Source: a virus (taxonomy: Duplodnaviria; Heunggongvirae; Uroviricota; Caudoviricetes). Taken from it: a DNA stretch of 64,000 bases. Below are positions 4,345 to 44,992 of the stretch, in pieces. How positions within the stretch are numbered: position 1 is the first letter of the stretch; every line of letters starts with the position of its first letter. The DNA lies in IMG/VR virus record IMGVR_UViG_2718218133_000001; one strand, written 5' to 3'. The position numbers and the translations under genes are program-made. The notes beneath the pieces were generated by a model that was given only the letters and a program-made list of their open reading frames with translations, did not search any database and had not been told where the DNA came from.

Positions 4345-4539
4345 GTTTTTTTAGTTTCATATGCTACATTAACTCGCTTGCGTGCTAATGCATTTTCGGT
4401 TTATCCTAAACAAGCATCTTAGTAAAACGGATGCCGGGATTGGAACCCCGGATAATGCAAAAGGCGACACAGACGCCAAAAGCGTCTTTTTTATGTCATG
4501 CCATCGCACAACCATACGTAGCACATAGCTACGAGATCA

Positions 4540-4640
4540 ATGGTAGTGCTGGCTGGGCTGCCGAAAGGCAGGCCGGTTCCCTTTTGCGCCGGTAGTTCCA
4601 ACCCAGTCAGTGCTACCGCCATTGAGATTGGAACCTCACG
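4540..4640 (+). ncRNA. c4: probable c4-like antisense immunity RNA region (immI)
   Basis: position between Op51-like operator and icd as in P1; structured GC-rich leader; boundaries approximate. Confidence 0.3.
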
Positions 4641-21842: not shown

Positions 21843-22631
21843 TTACTGTGCCGCTTTGTTTAATTCATCAAGAACAGAATCAGGAACCAAAGCGGCAACT
21901 GCGCTGGCTGTGCTGGCCTTATTTGCTGATGCTTCCGCAAGCGCGGTACCGATAGCATGGTTATAAGCAGTTATGGCTACGCTGGCGCTTTCCTTCGCTC
22001 GTTCATACTGCTGTTGCAATGCTGCTACCGGTACTGTTGTCTGGTCGAAAAAAGCACCAAATTGTTCAGTAACTTCCTTCAGTGCTTCAACTTGTTGTTC
22101 TGTCAGTGCTGGTGGGGGAGTGGCAGTGCCGCCGCCTGAACCAGAGCCTGACGAGCTTCCTGAGCCAGTGTTAAGGGTCTGGTTAATCTCCCCCATAGCA
22201 GCGACTAAACTTGATGTATTAAGCGCGTTTACAGCGTCCTCAAGCGATTTAGTAATAGTCACATCACCAATGGCAATAGAGATCGGCAGTTCTGATACTT
22301 CTCGCTCATTAGCACGACAGTAAACATCCCAACCAATATCGAGTTGAAGGAGCATTGACAGATCAGCATAACCAGCCAACAGGTCCGCGTGCTTAGTTGC
22401 CAGTTCTCCAATGTTCGTTAAGCCGGTTGTGGTTGTTCTGATCGTTGAAACATAGCTGGTAATAGTGTCGGGATAGACAATTGTATCCAGAATTAATCCG
22501 GTCAATTCTTCTGCAAGCAGTTTTGCTGTGTTAGCACTGTTTCGTGCCGATGTTATGGCACCAGGTGTTTTCATCCCACCGGCGGCGGCCAATTTTTTAT
22601 ATGCGGATAACTGGTAGTCTTTTTCCAGCAT
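21843..22631 (-). CDS. hypothetical protein with Gly/Ser-rich linker (start MLEKDYQ after AGGAGA RBS)
   Basis: trimmed from 281-aa ORF to RBS-supported start. Confidence 0.45.
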   Translation of the reverse strand: MLEKDYQLSAYKKLAAAGGMKTPGAITSARNSANTAKLLAEELTGLILDTIVYPDTITSYVSTIRTTTTGLTNIGELATKHADLLAGYADLSMLLQLDIGWDVYCRANEREVSELPISIAIGDVTITKSLEDAVNALNTSSLVAAMGEINQTLNTGSGSSSGSGSGGGTATPPPALTEQQVEALKEVTEQFGAFFDQTTVPVAALQQQYERAKESASVAITAYNHAIGTALAEASANKASTASAVAALVPDSVLDELNKAAQ

Positions 22632-22639
22632 GATATCTC

Positions 22640-22924
22640 CTAACTTACCTGAACCAGGCCGTCTCCGGACGCTACGGTAGATCCGCATGAAACAGGGTCA
22701 CCAACGCATACGATCCCTTTACCATTGACGGTAAACCATGCCCTGGTTGATATAGCTTGCCCACCGTGCGTACTGTTTCCATCGGTATGCTGTGCATATT
22801 GCTTACCATCAACTAACACTTCGACTCCGTTGACTTTAAGTAGTGGCTCACTCTCTACAGGAGGCCTGGATGGGAATCCTCCGTGCCCCGAACAAATGCT
22901 GTCTTTTGTTGCAATACTTGCCAC
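22640..22924 (-). CDS. PAAR-repeat domain protein
   Basis: 94-aa ORF with PAAR-like CxGHGG and VNGKGxVxVGDxVSCGS motifs. Confidence 0.55.
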   Translation of the reverse strand: MASIATKDSICSGHGGFPSRPPVESEPLLKVNGVEVLVDGKQYAQHTDGNSTHGGQAISTRAWFTVNGKGIVCVGDPVSCGSTVASGDGLVQVS

Positions 22925-23004
22925 GTCATCACCAATTATTTGCTCTGGTTTTCGTTATTTTAACTTAGGTTACTTGTGGTCTATATGGTGTTAACTATTG
23001 CATG

Positions 23005-23021
23005 ATTGCTCTAATAAATAT
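23005..23021 (+). promoter_or_regulatory. C1 operator (ATTGCTCTAATAAATAT) upstream of uhr-hrdC-dmt operon
   Basis: consensus match. Confidence 0.55.
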
Positions 23022-23092
23022 TGTTTTTTATGTCGTGTTTTCGGTACCATTCAGCCATCGCCCTTCAATGGGTATTTGTTTGGAGTCGTCAG

Positions 23093-23377
23093 ATGCAGAT
23101 GGAGCTAATAAGCCGCAAAGAGTTCGATAGCCGTGTAACCAGCGGTGAACTCGACAACTTGCAGGCTATCAAGGTGAAAGAAGGCTTTTGCCTCATTGGG
23201 AATCAGAGCGGAACAAATCGCGTTTTTATGCTTCGCCGTACGGATTTGAAGCCATTTGTCTGGAAGAACGAAATTGGTCCCAGCTCATACGCTCAAACTA
23301 GGGGGTGTCTCAACCTGGCCTTTTTCTACAAAAACGAGCTTTCTGTGGTTGATATTCAAGGGTTACAACATGTTTAA
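23093..23377 (+). CDS. small protein upstream of hrdC (uhr-like)
   Basis: GGAG RBS before ATG at 23093; overlaps hrdC start. Confidence 0.4.
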
Positions 23378-24275
23378 GCACTGGAAAAACATTACTATTT
23401 ATAAACTTTCTCGTGAAGCGGATCTGACCGACTTAGAAGATAAAAAGAAAATGATCCTTTTCACGCCATGCGGTAGTCAGGATATGGCCAAGTTCGGTTT
23501 TGTATCTCCATTTGGTGATAATTCCGAAGTTATCGCTATGCATGGAAATGGTTTTATCCTTGTTGAAGCAAAGCGCGAAACAAAAATCCTTCCCCCGCCG
23601 GTTATCCAGCGAGCTATTCAAGAAAAAATTGAAAAACTCGAGCAAGAACAAGCGCGTAAACTGAAGAAAACAGAGAAGGACTCCCTGAAAGACGAAGTTC
23701 TGCATTCTCTTCTGCCACGGGCTTTTTCAAAGTTTTCTGTTATCCAGGCGATCTACGACGGTTCAACTAAACGTATCTATATCAATGCCAGCGCGCGGCA
23801 GGCAGAGGATATGCTCGCGCTTATGCGTAAATCTCTGGGTTCTCTTCCTGTTGTTCCCCTAAGTGTTGAAAATCCCATTGAATTAACGCTGACCGACTGG
23901 GTACGTGATGGTAGTGCTCCACAGGGATTTCAAATGGGGGATGCGGCAGAACTTAAGGCAGTGCTTGAGGATGGCGGTATTGCCCGAGTGAAAAAGCAGG
24001 ATTTGGGAAGCGATGAAATTTCCACACACCTGGAAGCTGGCAAGCTCGTTACTAAGTTGGCACTCGACTGGCAGAACCGCATTAAATTTACACTGGACCA
24101 TAACTTCAGCCTTACCAGCGTCAAATTTGCGGATGAATTGCTTGAGCAGAACTCTGATATTGATAGTGAAGATGTTGCGCAGCGACTGGACGCAGATTTC
24201 TTCCTGTTGACCAGTGAAATTTCGTGCCTGGTTGATGCTCTGGTAAATGCCCTTGGTGGAGAGGCTAAGCAGTGA
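23370..24275 (+). CDS. hrdC: RdgC-like recombination-associated protein (P1 HrdC)
   Basis: strong similarity to E. coli RdgC recalled across the whole length ([36 protein letters not shown]); start MFKHWKN. Confidence 0.8.
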
Positions 24276-26290
24276 AAGAGCTGTGCTATGGATCTGTTTG
24301 CAGTGGAATTGAAGCCGCGAGTATTGCCTGGGAACCGTTGGGTATGCGTCCGGCGTGGTTTGCTGAAATCGAGCCTTTTCCATCTGCCGTTCTTGCGCAC
24401 CGCTGGCCCCATGTCGCCAACCTTGGCGACATGACAAAACTTGCCAAAAAAGTCCTGGCTGGGGAAATCGAATCCCCTGATGTGCTCGTCGGGGGTACGC
24501 CTTGTCAGGCATTCAGTATCGCGGGCTTACGTGGTGGGCTTGATGATGAACGCGGCGCGCTAACTTTGAAGTATGTGGAGCTTGCAAATGCAATTGACGA
24601 CAAACGGTCTGAGTCCTTCCTCAAACCGACAGTTATCGTCTGGGAAAATGTCCCAGGAGTCCTGTCATCGGCAGATAACGCCTTCGGATGTTTCCTTGCC
24701 GGATTGGCTGGAGAAGATGCGCCATTTGAACCAGGTGATCGACCTGAATCAGGAAAAAGTAACGCGTTCTGGCGGTGGGATGGCAAAACCGGTTGCCATG
24801 CTCCAAAGTGGCCGCAGTGTGGTTGTATTTATGGACCGCAGCGAAAGGTGGCCTGGAGAATCCTTGATGCCCAATACTTCGGAGTGGCACAACGACGCCG
24901 ACGCGTGTTTGTTGTCGCAAGTGCTCGAACAGACCTCGATCCCGCAACGGTACTTTTTGAGTTCGAAGGCGTGCGCCGGAATATTGCGCCGAGCAGAGGC
25001 GAGGGGAAGGAAACTACCAGATATACTTCAAACATCGCTATCAGATCTTGCGATGATACAAACATAGTTGCCATGGCACATGGGCAAGGAGGGGCTGAGA
25101 TAAAAACCGATAATTCGGCACCAACTTTGACATGTAACCATGAAGCACCAATTGTATTGCTCGTCGACGGTAGAATGCGCCGTCTTATCCCTGTCGAATG
25201 TGAAAGGCTGCAAGGTTTTCCTGATGGACATACATTGATCCCTACGGAAAAGCGTAAAAAAGTTTCTTCAGATGAACTGGCATACCTTCGCAAAAACTAT
25301 CCTGATTTGAGCGAAGAAGAGGCCGCGATGCTTGCAGCTGACGGACCGCGTTACAAAGCGATCGGCAATAGTATGGCGATACCAGTAATGCGCTGGATTG
25401 GCGATCGGATTGCCAAGGCTGCATGTCGGCAGAAGGAAGGGAGTGAAACAAAAGAGCGAAAAGTTAAACCAGCGGCAGAATTCGAACGGTCCATATTCAA
25501 ATGGGCTGGTGGAAAATTTGGTGTTCTGGAACAAATCTTTCGCTATTTGCCAGAAGGGAAGCGCCTGATTGAGCCTTTCGTTGGTGGCGGAGCTGTCTTC
25601 ATGAATGCCGGATACCAGGAAAATCTGCTAAATGATGTGAATGCTGACCTGATTAACTTTTACAAGACTCTGCAACGCGAGGCGCATTCACTTATCACTC
25701 TGGCACATCGTTTCTTCCAGGACTACAACACGCAGGAAGGATACCTGGCAGTACGGAATGCGTTTAACAAACAAGTCTATGATGATTTACATCGCGCAGC
25801 GGCGTTTTTGTTCCTGAACCGACATTGTTTTAACGGATTGACGCGTTACAACCAAGCCGGTGAGTTCAATGTCGGTTATGGGAAGTATAAAACTCCGTAT
25901 TTCCCATTGCAGGAGATGGAAGCCTTCCTTGGTGCGGAAGGGCGTTCTGAGTTTGTATGTGGTGATTTTGCTGCGGTGATTGAAGCTGCCGGAGAAGGAG
26001 ATGTCATCTTTTGCGATCCGCCGTATGAACCGCTCCCAAATACAGAGGGATTCACGAACTATTCCGGTCATGACTTTAAGTTTGAAGAGCAAAAACGCCT
26101 GGCGTCTCTGTTGACGGATGCTCATCGCCGAGGTGCAAAGGTTCTCATTACTAACAGTGGCGCGCCAAACATCAGAGAACTTTATCAGGACAGTGGCTTC
26201 AGAGTGGAACCTCTTTTTGCCAGACGTTCTGTGTCTTGTAAGGGGGACACTCGAGGTGTTGCTCATGACGTTATAGCAATATTGCTCTAA
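24272..26290 (+). CDS. dmt: bifunctional DNA methyltransferase: N-terminal C5-cytosine MTase ([12 protein letters not shown]) fused to C-terminal Dam-like N6-adenine MTase (FKWAGGK, DPPY)
   Basis: 672-aa ORF; GTG start overlapping hrdC stop; canonical MTase motifs seen. Confidence 0.8.
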
Positions 26291-26297
26291 TAAATTT
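26281..26297 (+). promoter_or_regulatory. C1 operator (ATTGCTCTAATAAATTT, perfect consensus) overlapping dmt stop codon
   Basis: exact consensus. Confidence 0.55.
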
Positions 26298-26474
26298 ATT
26301 AGTGTAATATCGCCTCAATGAATCGTGATTTATAGAGCGATTTAGCTGTTAGCCGCGACAGGCGCGGCGGCAAGTATGGCGGGGTAGTGACTCCTTCCCC
26401 CTCATGACGCCGAGTTGCCAGGTTGACCATACGCCTAAGTGGCAACACCGAAGTGCGTTACGAGCTTCCAGTTT

Positions 26475-26500
26475 GCCCATCTTCGGGTGGGCGTTTTTTT
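26475..26500 (+). terminator. intrinsic terminator (GCCCA..TGGGC stem + T7)
   Basis: seen in sequence about 180 bp after dmt. Confidence 0.5.
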
Positions 26501-26965
26501 CAGGGTTTTCGTCATGGTTAGCGACTTTGCGGCGGTTTAGAAACTGACCATTAAAGTAAATGCAAACGATGATCTGATGATGGTAGCGGCCTAAGAAGCC
26601 AGACGCCACGGGGTATGAGTCGTCCCCCGTCAAAAAATCGACCGCAGAGTGTCCCCGTCTGTGTATTAGGGAACGGGGAGGCACAACAGGTAAGGGCGCT
26701 GGTGTGATTAACCAGATGAACGAGAAGGGGCCATCTGTTGGTCAGCGTCCTTTCCTGTTGCGTCTTCTTTTCAGCGTAACAGCGGTGCTTAACAGCACTT
26801 TGGGTACAGTTCCACGAATTTACGGGTATATCCCGTCATGCTGAAAGCGCTAATCACGCTGGAAGCCAGGGTTATGCATCCCCTGTTACCGAATTGCAGC
26901 CAGGGCGCGGTGCGCCGAAAAGCATACGGAGGTGGAAGCCCTCGCCGGAGACGTACCCGGCAAGT

Positions 26966-27041
26966 GATGGTGTAGCTCAGCGGTTAGAGCGGTTGACTGT
27001 TAATCAACGGGTCGATGGTTCAAATCCATCCACCATCGCCA
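26966..27041 (+). tRNA. tRNA-Asn (anticodon GTT)
   Basis: manual cloverleaf fold: 7-bp acceptor GATGGTG/CACCATC, anticodon loop CTGTTAA, T-loop TTCAAAT, encoded CCA. Confidence 0.8.
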
Positions 27042-27043
27042 AT

Positions 27044-27119
27044 GCCGGTTTAGCTCAGTTGGTAGAGCGCCTGCCTTGTAAGCAGGATGTCAGCGGTTCG
27101 AGTCCGTTAATCGGCACCA
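27044..27119 (+). tRNA. tRNA-Thr (anticodon TGT)
   Basis: manual fold: acceptor GCCGGTT/AATCGGC, anticodon loop CTTGTAA, T-loop GGTTCGAGTCC, encoded CCA. Confidence 0.8.
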
Positions 27120-28047
27120 GCACAACAGGTAAGGGTATTTTGCGACGTCGGAGATCGCCGAGCTTGGCAGAGGGTTCGAATCCCTACGAAGTACCCTTAC
27201 CGTTGTGATGAATGCGCAGGCTGATGCGCGAAAGACATTGCAGCTATTGCGGAAAAGAGCTGTTCGGCGGGGCAATTAAACGCCCGTGAGAGTCTGAAAT
27301 AACCGCAAGCCGGAGATCAGCACCGGTCATCACAACACAACAGGTAAGGGCATTCTCCCTTATGGGGCTTGGCTTAAATGCATCGAGTGCTCTTACCGTT
27401 GTGATGAAGTGCAGCTCTTTGAAGCAACCAGAAGATAAGCATCTGGCTTCACAACATAAACCGCAGGAACGACCAATAAACGGTAGTCCGTATGGAGAAC
27501 ACCCCGTTGAGGAAGAGGCCTGGCCGGAACCGTAACCGGCACTACAACGTTGAGAACACTGGCGTAACGGGGTCATATCCCAATCTACGAATAAATGTTG
27601 CGTTGCAGCGTGACAACCAGTGTTCTCAACATTGTGGTGAATGCACAGGCTGATGTGCCGCAACTACAGTAGTGCGCGCTTTGCGGGGCTTGCTACAACC
27701 CTGTGTCGGAGTTCAGCACCGACCATCACAGTTTGATTCTCTGGCATGAGCATAACGCTGAAATAAGTCCAGCTTGGTGCGGCCCGATCACCCGCCGTTA
27801 GCTCCACGAAACGGAGCACGTAACAGGTAAGAGCATTCTCCTGTAACGGGTTCATATCCCAATCTACAGGTCCACCAAGAATGCTCTTTCCGTTGCGGTG
27901 AATGCGGCTAAGCGCACGCGGGGAAATGGTTATATCAGTCCATTCATTTCTCCTTGTTTCCCCGTCCACGGTGGATAACCAGCCAAAGGACACCGGGAGG
28001 CACCCGGCACCGCAGCTTTTTTATTCGTTAAATAATGGAGTGAGAGG

Positions 28048-28284
28048 ATGCAGAACAATCCGAACAAATGTCGAACGCTATGGGTGCGGTTATATATTTA
28101 TGCCGTCCTCTGTTTGATTGTGTCACTGGTTCTGTATGTTTGGCTTTTGCCAAATATGATCTCATCTAACAGCACAATACTTGTATTGTTGGGAGTCCTT
28201 CTCGCGCTCATTTACCCGGCTTTCGCAGTAGTCTTTTTTCGTGAAAAAACCAGGAAATTAATTAATGAAAAAAACGTTGATTAG
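28048..28284 (+). CDS. small two-TM membrane protein upstream of the SPFH lipoprotein
   Basis: 78-aa ORF, GGAGTGAGAGG RBS, two hydrophobic helices; overlaps plp start. Confidence 0.5.
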   Translation: MQNNPNKCRTLWVRLYIYAVLCLIVSLVLYVWLLPNMISSNSTILVLLGVLLALIYPAFAVVFFREKTRKLINEKNVD

Positions 28285-29092
28285 TGCAGCGATTATTTTG
28301 GGTTCTTTATGTCTGACCGGATGCGATCGGGTAGAGCCAGGTAACGTAGGGATCAAAGTAAATAAGCTGGGGGATGATAAAGGTATCGGTGAAGTAGTTG
28401 GCGTTGGTCGCTACTGGACAGGCTTGAATACTGAAGTTTATATCTTCCCGACCTTTAAGCAAATGAAGACATACGATGAGCCGTTCAGCTTCCAGATGAG
28501 CGACGGAACAACCATTGGTTACCACATCGGCGTAGCCTACAAGGTTGATCCAGCAAAAGTCACAACGGTATTTCAGACCTATCGCAAAGGTGTAGATGAT
28601 ATTACTGATACCGATCTACGCCAGAAGGTTGCAGATGCTCTGAACCGGTTAGCCAGCAAAATGACCACCGACAAATTTATCGACGGTGGCAAATCTGAAT
28701 TGCTTGATGCAGCCCTTAAAGACATTCAGGAAGAAATGACGCCAATCGGCATTCAGGTGATGAGCCTCTCTTATGTAGGTAAGCCAGAATACCCGCCAAC
28801 AGTTATTGACAGTATTAACGCCAAAGTCACGGCAAACCAAAAAACCCTGCAACGCGAGCAAGAGGTCAAACAACGTGAAGCAGAGGCCAACATGCTGCGC
28901 GCGGAAGCTGCCGGACAGGCTGATGCTATTCGCACAAAAGCCCAGGCCGAAGCTGATGCCATTCGTTTACGTGGTGAAGCTCTGCGCCAGAACCCCGGTG
29001 TTATGGAGTTGGAAGCGATCAACAAATGGAACGGTACATTACCGCAGTATATGACCAGTAATACCGCTGTTCCGTTTGTTCCGGTGAAATAA
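28265..29092 (+). CDS. plp: SPFH/band-7 domain lipoprotein (Plp-like)
   Basis: 275-aa ORF; lipobox LTGC; coiled-coil C-terminus (QREQEVKQREAEANMLRAEAAGQADAIR). Confidence 0.65.
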   Translation: MKKTLISAAIILGSLCLTGCDRVEPGNVGIKVNKLGDDKGIGEVVGVGRYWTGLNTEVYIFPTFKQMKTYDEPFSFQMSDGTTIGYHIGVAYKVDPAKVTTVFQTYRKGVDDITDTDLRQKVADALNRLASKMTTDKFIDGGKSELLDAALKDIQEEMTPIGIQVMSLSYVGKPEYPPTVIDSINAKVTANQKTLQREQEVKQREAEANMLRAEAAGQADAIRTKAQAEADAIRLRGEALRQNPGVMELEAINKWNGTLPQYMTSNTAVPFVPVK

Positions 29093-29119
29093 AAGCGTAA
29101 GCAAAATTGGCAGTAATCC

Positions 29120-29195
29120 GGCCCTTTAGCTCAGTGGTTAGAGCTGGCGACTCATAATCGCACGGTCACCGGTTCAAGTCCGGTAGGGGCCACCA
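29120..29195 (+). tRNA. tRNA with anticodon CAT (Met or lysidine-modified Ile)
   Basis: manual fold: acceptor GGCCCTT/AGGGGCC, anticodon loop CTCATAA, T-loop GGTTCAAGTCC, encoded CCA. Confidence 0.75.
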
Positions 29196-29481
29196 TATTT
29201 GGTTGTAACACGGCGTCTGGCACATGCGTCGTTAGCGGTCTGGTGACGTTAAAAGGGGGGAACCTTGCCCCTAGCTCAGGCAACGAACCAGGTAGCCGGA
29301 ATGTGCAAGCCACCGTTTGTTGTTTCTCGGGTAAAGGGATTCACCATCCTGGCGATTCGGTGTGACAGCCGGGAAGAGTCCGGCGCATTAATCCTGATTT
29401 TCTGGTGATGACTCATATCGTTAGGAGTGATTTGAGTATGCCGATTATATCTGACATTCAGCACGCCTGGGTGGAGTGCTA

Positions 29482-30846
29482 ATGTCTGCATCCCCTCTTG
29501 AATCCATGCCAAATTCCCTTAGTGCAGAACAAGCTGTACTTGGTGGCTTAATGCTTGATAACTGCCGCTGGGATGAAGTTGCAGATCGTATAGTTGCTGA
29601 TGATTTTTATACCAGTGCTCATCGTGAAATTTTCAGTGAGATGGAGAGGTTATTAAGTCATGGCAAACCGATTGATTTGATAACACTTGCTGAAGCACTT
29701 GAACAGAACGGTAAATTAGAACGCGCCGGTGGTTTTGCGTACCTTGCGGAGATGTCAAAGAACACGCCCAGCGCGGCAAATATTTGTGCTTATGCGGATA
29801 TCGTTCGTGAACGCGCGGTTGTTCGTGAAATGATTTCCGTCGCAAATGAAATAGCCGAAGCTGGATATGCGCAGGATGGCAGGGGCAGCAATGAATTGCT
29901 GGATATGGCCGAGCGCCGCGTTTTTGAAATAGCTGAAAAACGACAAAAGAGCGGTAGTGGTCCAAAAGATATCGCCAGCATTCTCGATGCAACGGTATCT
30001 CGCATAGAAGAGTTGTTTCAGCGACCGCATGATGGTGTAACGGGGCTTGATACCGGATTTACCGACCTCAATAAGAAGACGGCAGGACTTCAGCCGTCCG
30101 ATCTCATTATTGTCGCCGCCCGCCCATCGATGGGGAAGACCACGTTTGCGATGAATCTCGTCGAAAATGCCGCAGTCCGTAACGATAAGCCCGTATTGGT
30201 TTTTAGCCTTGAGATGCCGAGCCACCAGCTGATGATGCGCTCACTGGCTTCTCTTGCACGCGTTGATCAGACTCGTATTAGAACGGGGCAACTTAACGAC
30301 GATGATTGGGCGCGGGTTTCTGGCGCAATGGGTATTCTGTTGGACAAGCAGAATATTTTTATTGATGACTCAAGCGCCCTGACGCCGACAGAGCTACGTT
30401 CCCGCGCTCGTCGTGTTTATAAAGAAAATGGTGGTTTGAGCATGATTATGATCGACTACCTGCAACTTATGCGCGTCCCCGAGCTGCAAGATAACCGAAC
30501 GCTGGAAATTGCCGAGATTTCTCGCTCACTGAAGGCGTTGGCGAAGGAATTACAAGTACCGGTGGTGGCATTGTCACAACTTAATCGATCGCTTGAACAG
30601 CGTGCGGACAAACGACCGGTAAATTCAGATTTACGTGAATCAGGAGCAATTGAGCAGGACGCAGACCTGATCATGTTTCTGTATCGCGATGAAGTTTATC
30701 ACCCGGATAGCGAAATGAAGGGCATTGCCGAGGTAATTATCGGAAAGCAACGAAATGGCCCAATTGGCACGGTGAGATTGGCTTTTAACGGCCAATACTC
30801 ACGGTTTGATAACTATGCTGGTGCTGACTGGCAAGAGGATTATTAA
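29482..30846 (+). CDS. ban: DnaB-family replicative helicase Ban
   Basis: Walker A RPSMGKTT, DnaB motifs; ATG at 29482 after GGTGGAG RBS. Confidence 0.9.
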   Translation: MSASPLESMPNSLSAEQAVLGGLMLDNCRWDEVADRIVADDFYTSAHREIFSEMERLLSHGKPIDLITLAEALEQNGKLERAGGFAYLAEMSKNTPSAANICAYADIVRERAVVREMISVANEIAEAGYAQDGRGSNELLDMAERRVFEIAEKRQKSGSGPKDIASILDATVSRIEELFQRPHDGVTGLDTGFTDLNKKTAGLQPSDLIIVAARPSMGKTTFAMNLVENAAVRNDKPVLVFSLEMPSHQLMMRSLASLARVDQTRIRTGQLNDDDWARVSGAMGILLDKQNIFIDDSSALTPTELRSRARRVYKENGGLSMIMIDYLQLMRVPELQDNRTLEIAEISRSLKALAKELQVPVVALSQLNRSLEQRADKRPVNSDLRESGAIEQDADLIMFLYRDEVYHPDSEMKGIAEVIIGKQRNGPIGTVRLAFNGQYSRFDNYAGADWQEDY

Positions 30847-44760: not shown

Positions 44761-44992
44761 ACAGAACGAAAAGGCTATCGCTCAAATTGCTGATTATATC
44801 CCGCGTGCGTGCCGGGGTATGCAGTTGCAGGAAGCCAAAGCGCGCCTGGAGAAAAAAATTGCGCTCTATATTGATGACGGCTGTGATGCTGCTGTTCTTA
44901 ACGCAGCGTTCGCGCCAGCTCTTAACAGTCATACGCGGGAGTCTTTTTTTTCGCGCATCGCAGCGCAGATCCGTAAAGGAGGCAACCAGTGA
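44753..44992 (+). CDS. small hypothetical protein
   Basis: 79-aa ORF, overlapping stop/start. Confidence 0.35.
   Translation: MFKQNEKAIAQIADYIPRACRGMQLQEAKARLEKKIALYIDDGCDAAVLNAAFAPALNSHTRESFFSRIAAQIRKGGNQ

Follow-up and report, generated by a model that had tools for sequence, protein, structure and literature searches.

We examined a stretch of 64,000 nucleotides from a virus of the class Caudoviricetes (IMG/VR record IMGVR_UViG_2718218133_000001; the whole stretch is referred to as the window) and describe here an array of long hairpins, probably RNase III processing sites, which lies around its tRNA-Asn and tRNA-Thr genes. The window comes from a P1-like phage and was 98–99% identical to P1-group phages over positions 26290-28050 (BLAST). 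The C1 operator ATTGCTCTAATAAATTT was found by its sequence at 26281-26297 (+), in the Pban promoters at the start of the transcription unit; its counterpart in the P1 record AF234172 is Obana/P1ban/P2ban. The order of features in AF234172 is dmt, the C1 operators with P1ban/P2ban, a "dicF-like region", tRNA-Asn, tRNA-Thr, the minus-strand plp and upl, tciABC, a CAU tRNA and ban. Because of this order and the position of the C1 operator, the array can be placed in the plus-strand leader of the repressor-controlled ban operon. This C1-repressed leader (26300-28030, +) is untranslated, is approximately 1.7 kb long and contains no conserved reading frame. Its tRNA genes are tRNA-Asn (GUU) at 26966-27041 (+; ARAGORN; Rfam 74.5 bits) and tRNA-Thr (UGU) at 27044-27119 (+; ARAGORN, Rfam and sequence), and a CAU tRNA is found in the window at 29120-29195 (ARAGORN/Rfam). 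Our literature search turned up no mention of the ban operon.

In the P1 record part of this region is annotated as protein-coding: plp (AF234172 69472-69849) and upl (69850-70041) run antisense through the RNA modules described below. If these were genes, the region would encode Plp and Upl on the minus strand and its repeats would be repeats within coding sequence, and minus-strand open reading frames (ORFs) of 139 and 109 amino acids are indeed present in the window (27244-27663 and 27664-27993). However, plp also overlaps tRNA-Thr, the sequences are rich in Cys, Ser and Gly and have non-ATG starts, and the RNA pairing covaries on the opposite strand. As the two ORFs are in two to three pieces or absent in the window, P7, D6, SJ46 and Ro157, plp and upl are very probably annotation artefacts and not genes, and we consider a coding origin of the repeats to be extremely unlikely.

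Five long hairpins, termed A1 to A5, were identified on the plus strand of the leader. Their folding energies lie between −34 and −56 kcal/mol; relative to dinucleotide shuffles the z-scores are −4.45 to −6.27, and an equally stable fold was seen in 0 of 200 shuffled sequences. When R1, a covariance model built from homologous A-hairpin arms, was run on the whole 64-kb window, it matched A3 (51.9 bits), A2 (48.8 bits), A5 (47.9 bits) and A1 (32.2 bits), with E values from 1e−12 to 7e−7, and nothing significant was found beyond these four. A1 (26682-26762, +; fold z −5.1) is nearly symmetric. A2 (27121-27207, +; fold z −5.7) begins one base after the CCA end of tRNA-Thr and carries in its tip a copy of a tRNA T arm, which adjoins the 3′ strand of the hairpin by stacking. 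A3 occupies 27336-27403 (+; fold z −4.45), A4 occupies 27540-27639 (+; fold z −6.27) and A5 occupies 27819-27897 (+; fold z −5.95), and the tips of A4 and A5 contain an anticodon-arm-like motif (27562-27589 and 27840-27870, respectively) which covaries. A small hairpin, GCUCCACGAAACGGAGC, lies at 27801-27817 (+) and, in a listing of contexts, was seen to precede A hairpins directly in many phages. A4 has a divergent type of arm; it shares base, architecture, position and tip motif with the other A hairpins, and is tied to the family through architecture, context and intermediates such as the hairpin after tRNA-Ser in D6 (R1 32.8 bits). Hairpins of the A4 type also lie directly 3′ of tRNA-Thr in other P1-like contigs.

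These results agree with an original prediction, made from the letters of the window, that five repeated structured units lie here in the leader and trailer of the two tRNAs, have no coding potential and do not form a canonical cloverleaf. Even at E ≤ 10, ARAGORN and Rfam found only tRNA-Asn and tRNA-Thr in the array stretch, and the Rfam near-matches on the A hairpins were all to microRNA-precursor models, which reflect simply a long hairpin. The arms which the units were said to share were recovered by repeat finding, and all five units pair as long stems, with a different mid-stem sequence in A4. The 3′ consensus which had been proposed for the units proved to be composite. Its first half lies in the hairpin, whereas its second half (GGTGAATGC[AG]CAGGCTGATG) opens a separate closed RNA domain, which we termed B and which is distinct from the A hairpin. 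The opening motif of B is GGUGAAUGC[AG]CAGGCUGAUG, and GUUGUG is at once the 3′ strand of the A base helix and the first 6 nt of the closing helix of the B domain which follows.

Two conserved B motifs were used to fetch approximately 240 viral contigs, from which hairpins were harvested by motif-anchored selection and then with a covariance model. For analysis of covariation we used 34 distinct arm pairs of P1-like and lambdoid phages, each made by joining the 24 nt at the two ends of a hairpin. The layout of the hairpin was constant: a 6-bp base CACAAC/GUUGUG, a 1-nt bulge, 2 bp, a 1×1 mismatch, an AAGnGC/GCnCUU stem and a variable tip. Pairing was possible in 93.3% of cells, vs 79.7% in shuffles, and changes on both sides were seen at 12 of the 19 pairs, including those of the base helix (CGCAAC/GUUGCG, CACAGC/GCUGUG and CAAAAC/GUUUUG). 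The covariation score was 0.409, compared to 0.158 in shuffled alignments (reached by 0 of 500) and approximately 0.075 with slid partners, which amounts to strong covariation of the stem between phages. Also kept were the bulge at column 7 and the 10/42 mismatch, a position which is unpaired in 25 of the 34 hairpins. The tips, by comparison, range from 0 to approximately 70 nt and are highly variable, being unlike one another even between near-identical arms. Since some members of the family are only 41–48 nt long and carry no tip cargo, it is the stem which appears to be the functional part.

Hairpins confirmed by R1 were found in Escherichia, Klebsiella, Kluyvera, Citrobacter, Enterobacter, Rahnella, Rouxiella, Erwinia, Sodalis, Pantoea and other Enterobacterales. 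A genome-wide pattern scan produced 104 matches, which is about chance level for 596 Gb, and only matches confirmed by R1 were used. It should be noted that approximately 20 GTDB assemblies of unrelated taxa, including Pseudomonas, Shewanella, Oceanobacillus, Enterococcus and Bradyrhizobium, carry identical lambda sequence (loci L247, L249, L265, L269, L271, L281, L282, L285, L286, L293, L296, L305, L317, L318, L323 and others). Many of these contigs are short or of low coverage and two are approximately 48.5 kb; this is DNA contamination.

Phages of the P1 group contain the same kind of array and differ in its modules. The order is Thr-A2-B1-A3-B2 in the window, Thr-A2-B2 in P1 and D6, and Thr-A3-B2 in P7 and Ro157, so that modules have been gained or lost exactly at the A arms. 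The B1 segment (27201-27337) is absent from P1 and is 97–98% identical to lambdoid and Stx2-converting phages, with the homology bounded by A arms. Differences of this kind would also be expected if the imperfect palindromes acted at the level of DNA, as attC-like recombination sites or as miniature mobile palindromes (MITE). The ends CACAAC...GTTGTG recall RYYYAAC...GTTRRRY, and AAC...GTT ends, bulged bases, a variable centre and a cassette-like array are all attC-like traits. The ends do not form an R-box, however, as they read [GA]CACAAC/GTTGTG[YR] with an A for the third Y, and the spacers are paired. No integron integrase or integron context was present in the annotated records of these loci, and the elements were confined to phage operon leaders. 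The hairpins also follow the transcribed strand: of 57 R1 matches in other loci, 49 were co-oriented with the neighbouring B domains and all eight exceptions were of the nearly symmetric A1 type, while three positions of the stem contain U-G pairs which would be C-A mismatches if read on the opposite strand. Crossing-over between the 15–17 bp direct repeats of the A arms explains all three arrangements, and because such ordinary homologous recombination accounts for them no site-specific system is needed. On the grounds of consensus, strand bias and context we rejected an attC or MITE identity, and we regard a DNA-level role in general as very unlikely.

The placement of the hairpins relative to other RNAs was regular. 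In P1-like arrays an A hairpin of either type starts 0–2 nt after the last tRNA of a run (Thr or Ser-UGA). Elsewhere it is preceded by the U run of a small RNA (sRNA)-type terminator, by the small hairpin GCUCCACGAAACGGAGC or by the last hairpin of a B domain, and downstream of it lies either a B domain or the 5′ untranslated region of the first ORF. None of the 111 tRNAs in the fetched loci was enclosed by an A stem. This bears on the suggestion, made in the original prediction, that the units are tRNA pseudogenes, and on the related reading that they are remnants of tRNA cassettes which were once flanked by long processing stalks. Decayed tRNA genes of either kind are suggested by the tip of A2, where a perfect T arm is followed by 7 nt and ACC in the manner of a tRNA 3′ end, and by the extra real tRNAs (Tyr, Ser and Arg) which relatives have in the same arrays. 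The units gave no match to ARAGORN or the Rfam tRNA model, though, and the A hairpins come after tRNAs and not around them. As the long stem is the conserved and covarying part while the tRNA-like pieces are variable cargo of the tip, and are sometimes missing, the units are not tRNA pseudogenes in our view, and an origin of this type seems quite improbable. The tRNA sets of the arrays themselves vary (L004, L005, L007, L023, L031, L119 and L120 in our numbering of loci), consisting of Asn-Thr, Asn-Tyr-Thr or Arg(UCU)-Tyr-Thr, plus Ser(UGA) and plus the CAU tRNA. We speculate that, as these tRNAs mostly read ANN or UAY codons, they might fit a counter-measure against anticodon nucleases rather than codon supply.

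We also compared the tips of the hairpins with parts of tRNAs. A2 is the only unit of the window with a canonical T arm (G53, UUCRANY loop, C61), GGGTTCGAATCCC / AGGGUUCGAAUCCCU at 27171-27185, a sequence noticed as T-arm-like in the original prediction. The other sequences described there as T-arm-like, GGG[GT]TCATATCCCAATCTAC at 27570-27588 and 27849-27867, are better called anticodon-arm-like: they belong to a motif, [stem]-AC-GGG-nYCAUAW-CCC-AAUC-[stem′], with a 7-nt loop containing U33-like, CAU and A37-like positions, which is found in A4 and A5 and also, for example, in locus L002 (3212-3252). In a set of 43 distinct tips, the T-loop pattern GTTCRANTC with a closing G-C was found five times in sense (A2 being one of the five) and zero times in antisense, with 0.055 expected, and the anticodon-arm-like motif was found seven times in sense and zero times in antisense. 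Across 12 copies of the latter motif the outer stem covaried at seven of seven pairs (0.494 vs 0.194 in shuffles) and CAU, CC and AA.C were invariant. The copy in mEp460, GGGCUCAUAACCC, matches the anticodon stem-loop of E. coli initiator tRNA at all of 13 nt.

It may be that these tips are the functional part, with the A stems being scaffolds which display or release mimics of tRNA arms (a T arm, or an initiator-like CAU anticodon arm). Mimicry of an anticodon arm is known from the thrS operator. Decoys had also been named in the original prediction. Such mimics would bind or distract factors which recognise tRNA, for example MetRS, IF3, the 30S P site, T-arm enzymes, or the anticodon nucleases found in defence or toxin systems. 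Besides the sense-only enrichment, the covariation of the outer stem, the invariant CAU and the mEp460 copy, the adjacency of the arrays to real tRNA genes could be seen in this light. Against this, most tips, including those of lambda, Qin, A1 and A3, have no known resemblance and some hairpins lack cargo altogether, the AC and AAUC flanks are unlike those of a tRNA, the partner proteins are candidates only, and the likeness was spotted post hoc in a small sample of related members. We therefore regard a function of the tips as unlikely. A Drosha-like variant, in which RNase III would free tips of 40–70 nt (imitating a T arm, or an initiator-type CAU anticodon arm with three G-C pairs) as decoys for tRNA-recognising factors, appears equally doubtful to us. 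If it were true, tips in the first transcripts made after derepression would titrate factors of the host or of rival elements, for which MetRS, IF3 together with the 30S P site, and anticodon nucleases, whether of the fMet-specific VapC type or others, are candidates, and the cassette-like shuffling of tips between phages would reflect an arms race.

Homologues of the A hairpins outside the P1-like arrays point to RNA processing. R1 identified an A hairpin in phage lambda (J02459 44787-44862; 54.8 bits, E = 5e−15) and another upstream of dicF in the Qin prophage (NC_000913.3 1649173-1649256, locus L003 874-957; 52.8 bits). The lambda hairpin starts immediately after tR′, the terminator of the 6S RNA, approximately 320 nt before S, in the Q-dependent late leader. 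RNase III sites were reportedly found by Daniels and colleagues in 1988 in this late leader, downstream of tR′. In Qin, a 190-nt precursor of DicF is lost without RNase III and its 5′ end was determined by primer extension (Ragunathan et al. 2023, citing Faubladier et al. 1990). Measured upstream from the 3′ end of dicF, this length places the 5′ end at approximately position 946 of L003, inside the 3′ arm of the A hairpin (937-957) and approximately 11 nt above its base.

The same contexts could be thought to indicate modules which act on transcription and help RNA polymerase to pass the terminators of the leader, whether in the manner of put of HK022, as an antiterminator or anti-Rho RNA, or as a boxA-like site for NusB/E. 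The 1.7-kb untranslated leader contains terminators, according to a terminator scan, and A hairpins often stand right after terminators. Moreover, the 3′ arms contain UGCUCUUU (e.g. 27882-27889), which is identical to the first 8 nt of rrn boxA. In the hairpins, however, this stretch is paired and covaries with the strand opposite, so that a role as boxA is unlikely and the match is probably coincidental. The pL/pR region of HK022 contained neither module: within positions 22000-31000 R1 scored nothing higher than 9 bits and the B start motif was not in excess. Lambda, furthermore, has N and Q for antitermination and yet carries an A hairpin. An effect on transcription therefore appears to us to be rather unlikely.

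We conclude that the A hairpins are probably (with a probability of about 0.6) RNase III processing sites which punctuate a non-coding precursor. Their stems are 19 to >25 bp long, or about two helical turns, a length that fits an RNase III substrate. A role in RNA processing had been raised in the original prediction and is still the most likely one; the Qin dicF precursor and the lambda late leader indicate RNase III as the enzyme, and not RNase P or RNase E. Under this model, loss of C1 repression would lead Pban to make a long untranslated precursor running through tRNA-Asn, tRNA-Thr and the RNA domains before the protein genes and ban are reached. RNase III would then cut each A hairpin approximately 10–12 bp, or about one helical turn, above the base of the stem. 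Only one base lies between the CCA of tRNA-Thr and A2, so that a cut in A2 would remove the tRNA-Thr trailer. More generally, the cuts would part upstream sRNA, terminator or tRNA units from the downstream RNA and would set the 5′ ends of the B domains which follow. The short lower stem left after the cut would be expected to melt, freeing GUUGUG and allowing the closing helix of the B domain to form. The hairpins, their family, covariation, strand bias and placement, and the homology to Qin and lambda, were observed, while for the P1 copies we infer the cutting by RNase III, the cut positions and the later refolding of B. The variable tips are not needed for a processing role.

Several points weigh against RNase III processing or weaken the case for it. 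The lower stem (CACAAC.. and AAGnGC/GCnCUU) is more conserved in sequence than known RNase III needs would explain, and this conservation may instead be due to a different factor which binds there, or to recombination and recent spread. A processing role alone likewise leaves unexplained why tRNA-arm-like tips are enriched in a strand-specific way. The Qin cleavage site is placed by fragment length only (approximately ±3 nt), and the reported lambda sites are presumed to fall within the 44787-44862 hairpin. A4 was not matched by R1, its mid-stem sequence being different (CUACAACGUUGAGAAC...), and A1 is ambiguous in orientation, with R1 scoring the minus strand slightly higher (36.6 bits). Lastly, the hairpins used to measure covariation had passed a folding filter, which inflates the percentage of paired cells but not the compensatory changes.

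Four B domains or B-like elements follow the A hairpins in the window. B1 (27202-27336, +; fold, BLAST and family covariation) has a closing helix GUUGUGAUG/CAUCACAAC, a first hairpin with the loop GGCUGA and a last hairpin CCGG-AGAUCAGCA-CCGG. B2 (27398-27455, +) is short and may be B-like, with a closing helix and one hairpin only; it was recognised through repeat family D2 and folds with a z of −1.4. B3 lies at 27631-27732 (+; fold) and is in the B alignment as an identical P1 copy. B4 (27892-28022, +; fold z −3.5) is STnc100/PasD-like and is closed by GUUGCGGUG/CACCGCAGC, after which UUUUUU probably terminates the array. The Rfam model RF02076 matched it at 27894-28014 with 37.8 bits, under the gathering score of 47. 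Across 47 distinct copies from phages the B closing helix showed compensatory changes at seven of nine pairs (e.g. GGAUUGGAUG/CAUCCAAUC and UGUGUAGGUG/CACCUACACA), and covariation over the whole domain was 0.259 vs 0.102 in shuffles, the first hairpin having been fixed by the search pattern. Domains of type 1 (GGUGAAUGC-GCRCAGGCUGAUGYGC ... AGCCGGAGAUCAGCACCGG-CCACC, with a variable middle) were found in >90 distinct copies in loci L008-L242 and are widespread in enterobacterial prophages. B1 and B3, which are of this type, matched no family of Rfam 15. The type-1 loops GGCUGA and AGAUCAGCA are invariant and complementary over 5 bp, and by their sequence a loop-loop contact is possible.

Upstream of A1 the leader contains, at 26345-26460 (+), a homologue of the approximately 137-nt element which precedes dicF in Qin, as judged by alignment with K-12 Qin and by the P1 annotation, in which it is the "dicF-like region". 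An intrinsic terminator hairpin with a U run follows at 26471-26500 (+; terminator scan and alignment), occupying the position which dicF has in Qin, and is possibly the 3′ end of an sRNA. The stretch 26345-26500 thus joins a homologue of the dicF-upstream element to an unlike, terminator-bearing sequence, and may be an uncharacterised sRNA made from Pban. The interval between A1 and tRNA-Asn (26763-26965) had no significant structure (fold z −1.4). Directly 3′ of the CAU tRNA, the P1-like loci which we examined have UUUGGUUGUAACACGGCGUCUGGCACAUGCGUCGUUAGCGGUC, and this sequence also sits just after pL in mEp460; it was located at L001 3834-3880, L002 ~2750-2800 and L005 3639-3686, and a counterpart in the window would be expected at 29196-29260. 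D6 has a cargo-less A hairpin (53 bits) between the CAU tRNA and ban. Elsewhere in the window, 4414-4623 contains an isrK-like sequence (58.5 bits) and a C4 antisense RNA (76.7 bits), as expected for the immI region of P1, and this pair is also present in mEp460.

For the homologous positions of lambda and Qin, processing by RNase III has been on record since 1988–1990, and if the hairpins are merely RNase III sites then they are a useful annotation and no surprise. The present analysis adds the definition of a covarying family, its occurrence in multiple copies and next to tRNA 3′ ends in P1, the distinction between A and B modules, and the tRNA-arm-like tips. The 1.7-kb stretch of P1 which contains the doubtful ORFs plp and upl makes better sense as a modular array of non-coding RNA, made of tRNAs, sRNA-like domains and processing hairpins. 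Neither the A hairpin nor the type-1 B domain is included in Rfam 15, and the A family joins the P1 array, the lambda late leader and the dicF locus. The type-1 B domain and the tip motif resembling the initiator anticodon arm seem not to have been described before. Predictions of cleavage arise for tRNA 3′ maturation, for sRNA biogenesis and for the expression of ban.

When compared to known systems, the hairpins of the window are most similar to those of lambda and Qin, with which they share the R1 model, the base CACAAC/GUUGUG, the bulge, the mismatch and a place after a terminator or RNA gene. They differ in number, with five copies in one leader vs one copy each in lambda and Qin, and in that the window copies flank tRNAs and carry tRNA-arm-like tips; their cleavage is also predicted from the homologues. 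RNase III sites separate the early cistrons of T7, and rRNA precursors have processing stalks. The intercistronic sites of T7 early mRNA and the rRNA stalks are likewise long imperfect stems with small internal loops between the units of a precursor, but they have no sequence relation to the A hairpins and contain neither the conserved lower stem nor a variable tip cargo. As for tRNAs, A2 has a canonical T arm and A4 and A5 have a GGG/CCC stem with a 7-nt U-CAU-A loop like a CAU anticodon arm, whereas the tips form no cloverleaf or acceptor end and the motif has conserved flanks of its own (AC...AAUC).

Two sRNA families also bear comparison with parts of the array. STnc100 and PasD have been described as related Hfq-associated prophage sRNAs. 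With STnc100 (RF02076), B4 and an element between dicF and dicB in Qin share the closing helix, a GGUGAAU start and the terminal hairpin CCGGGAGGCACCCGG; the Qin element scored 34.4 bits, so that both are under the gathering score, and the likeness concerns the neighbours of the hairpins. The DicF model RF00039 had no match in the window (K-12 control 76.7 bits). The window resembles, at 26345-26460, the sequence just upstream of dicF and not dicF itself, and the sequence at the position of dicF is a different one.

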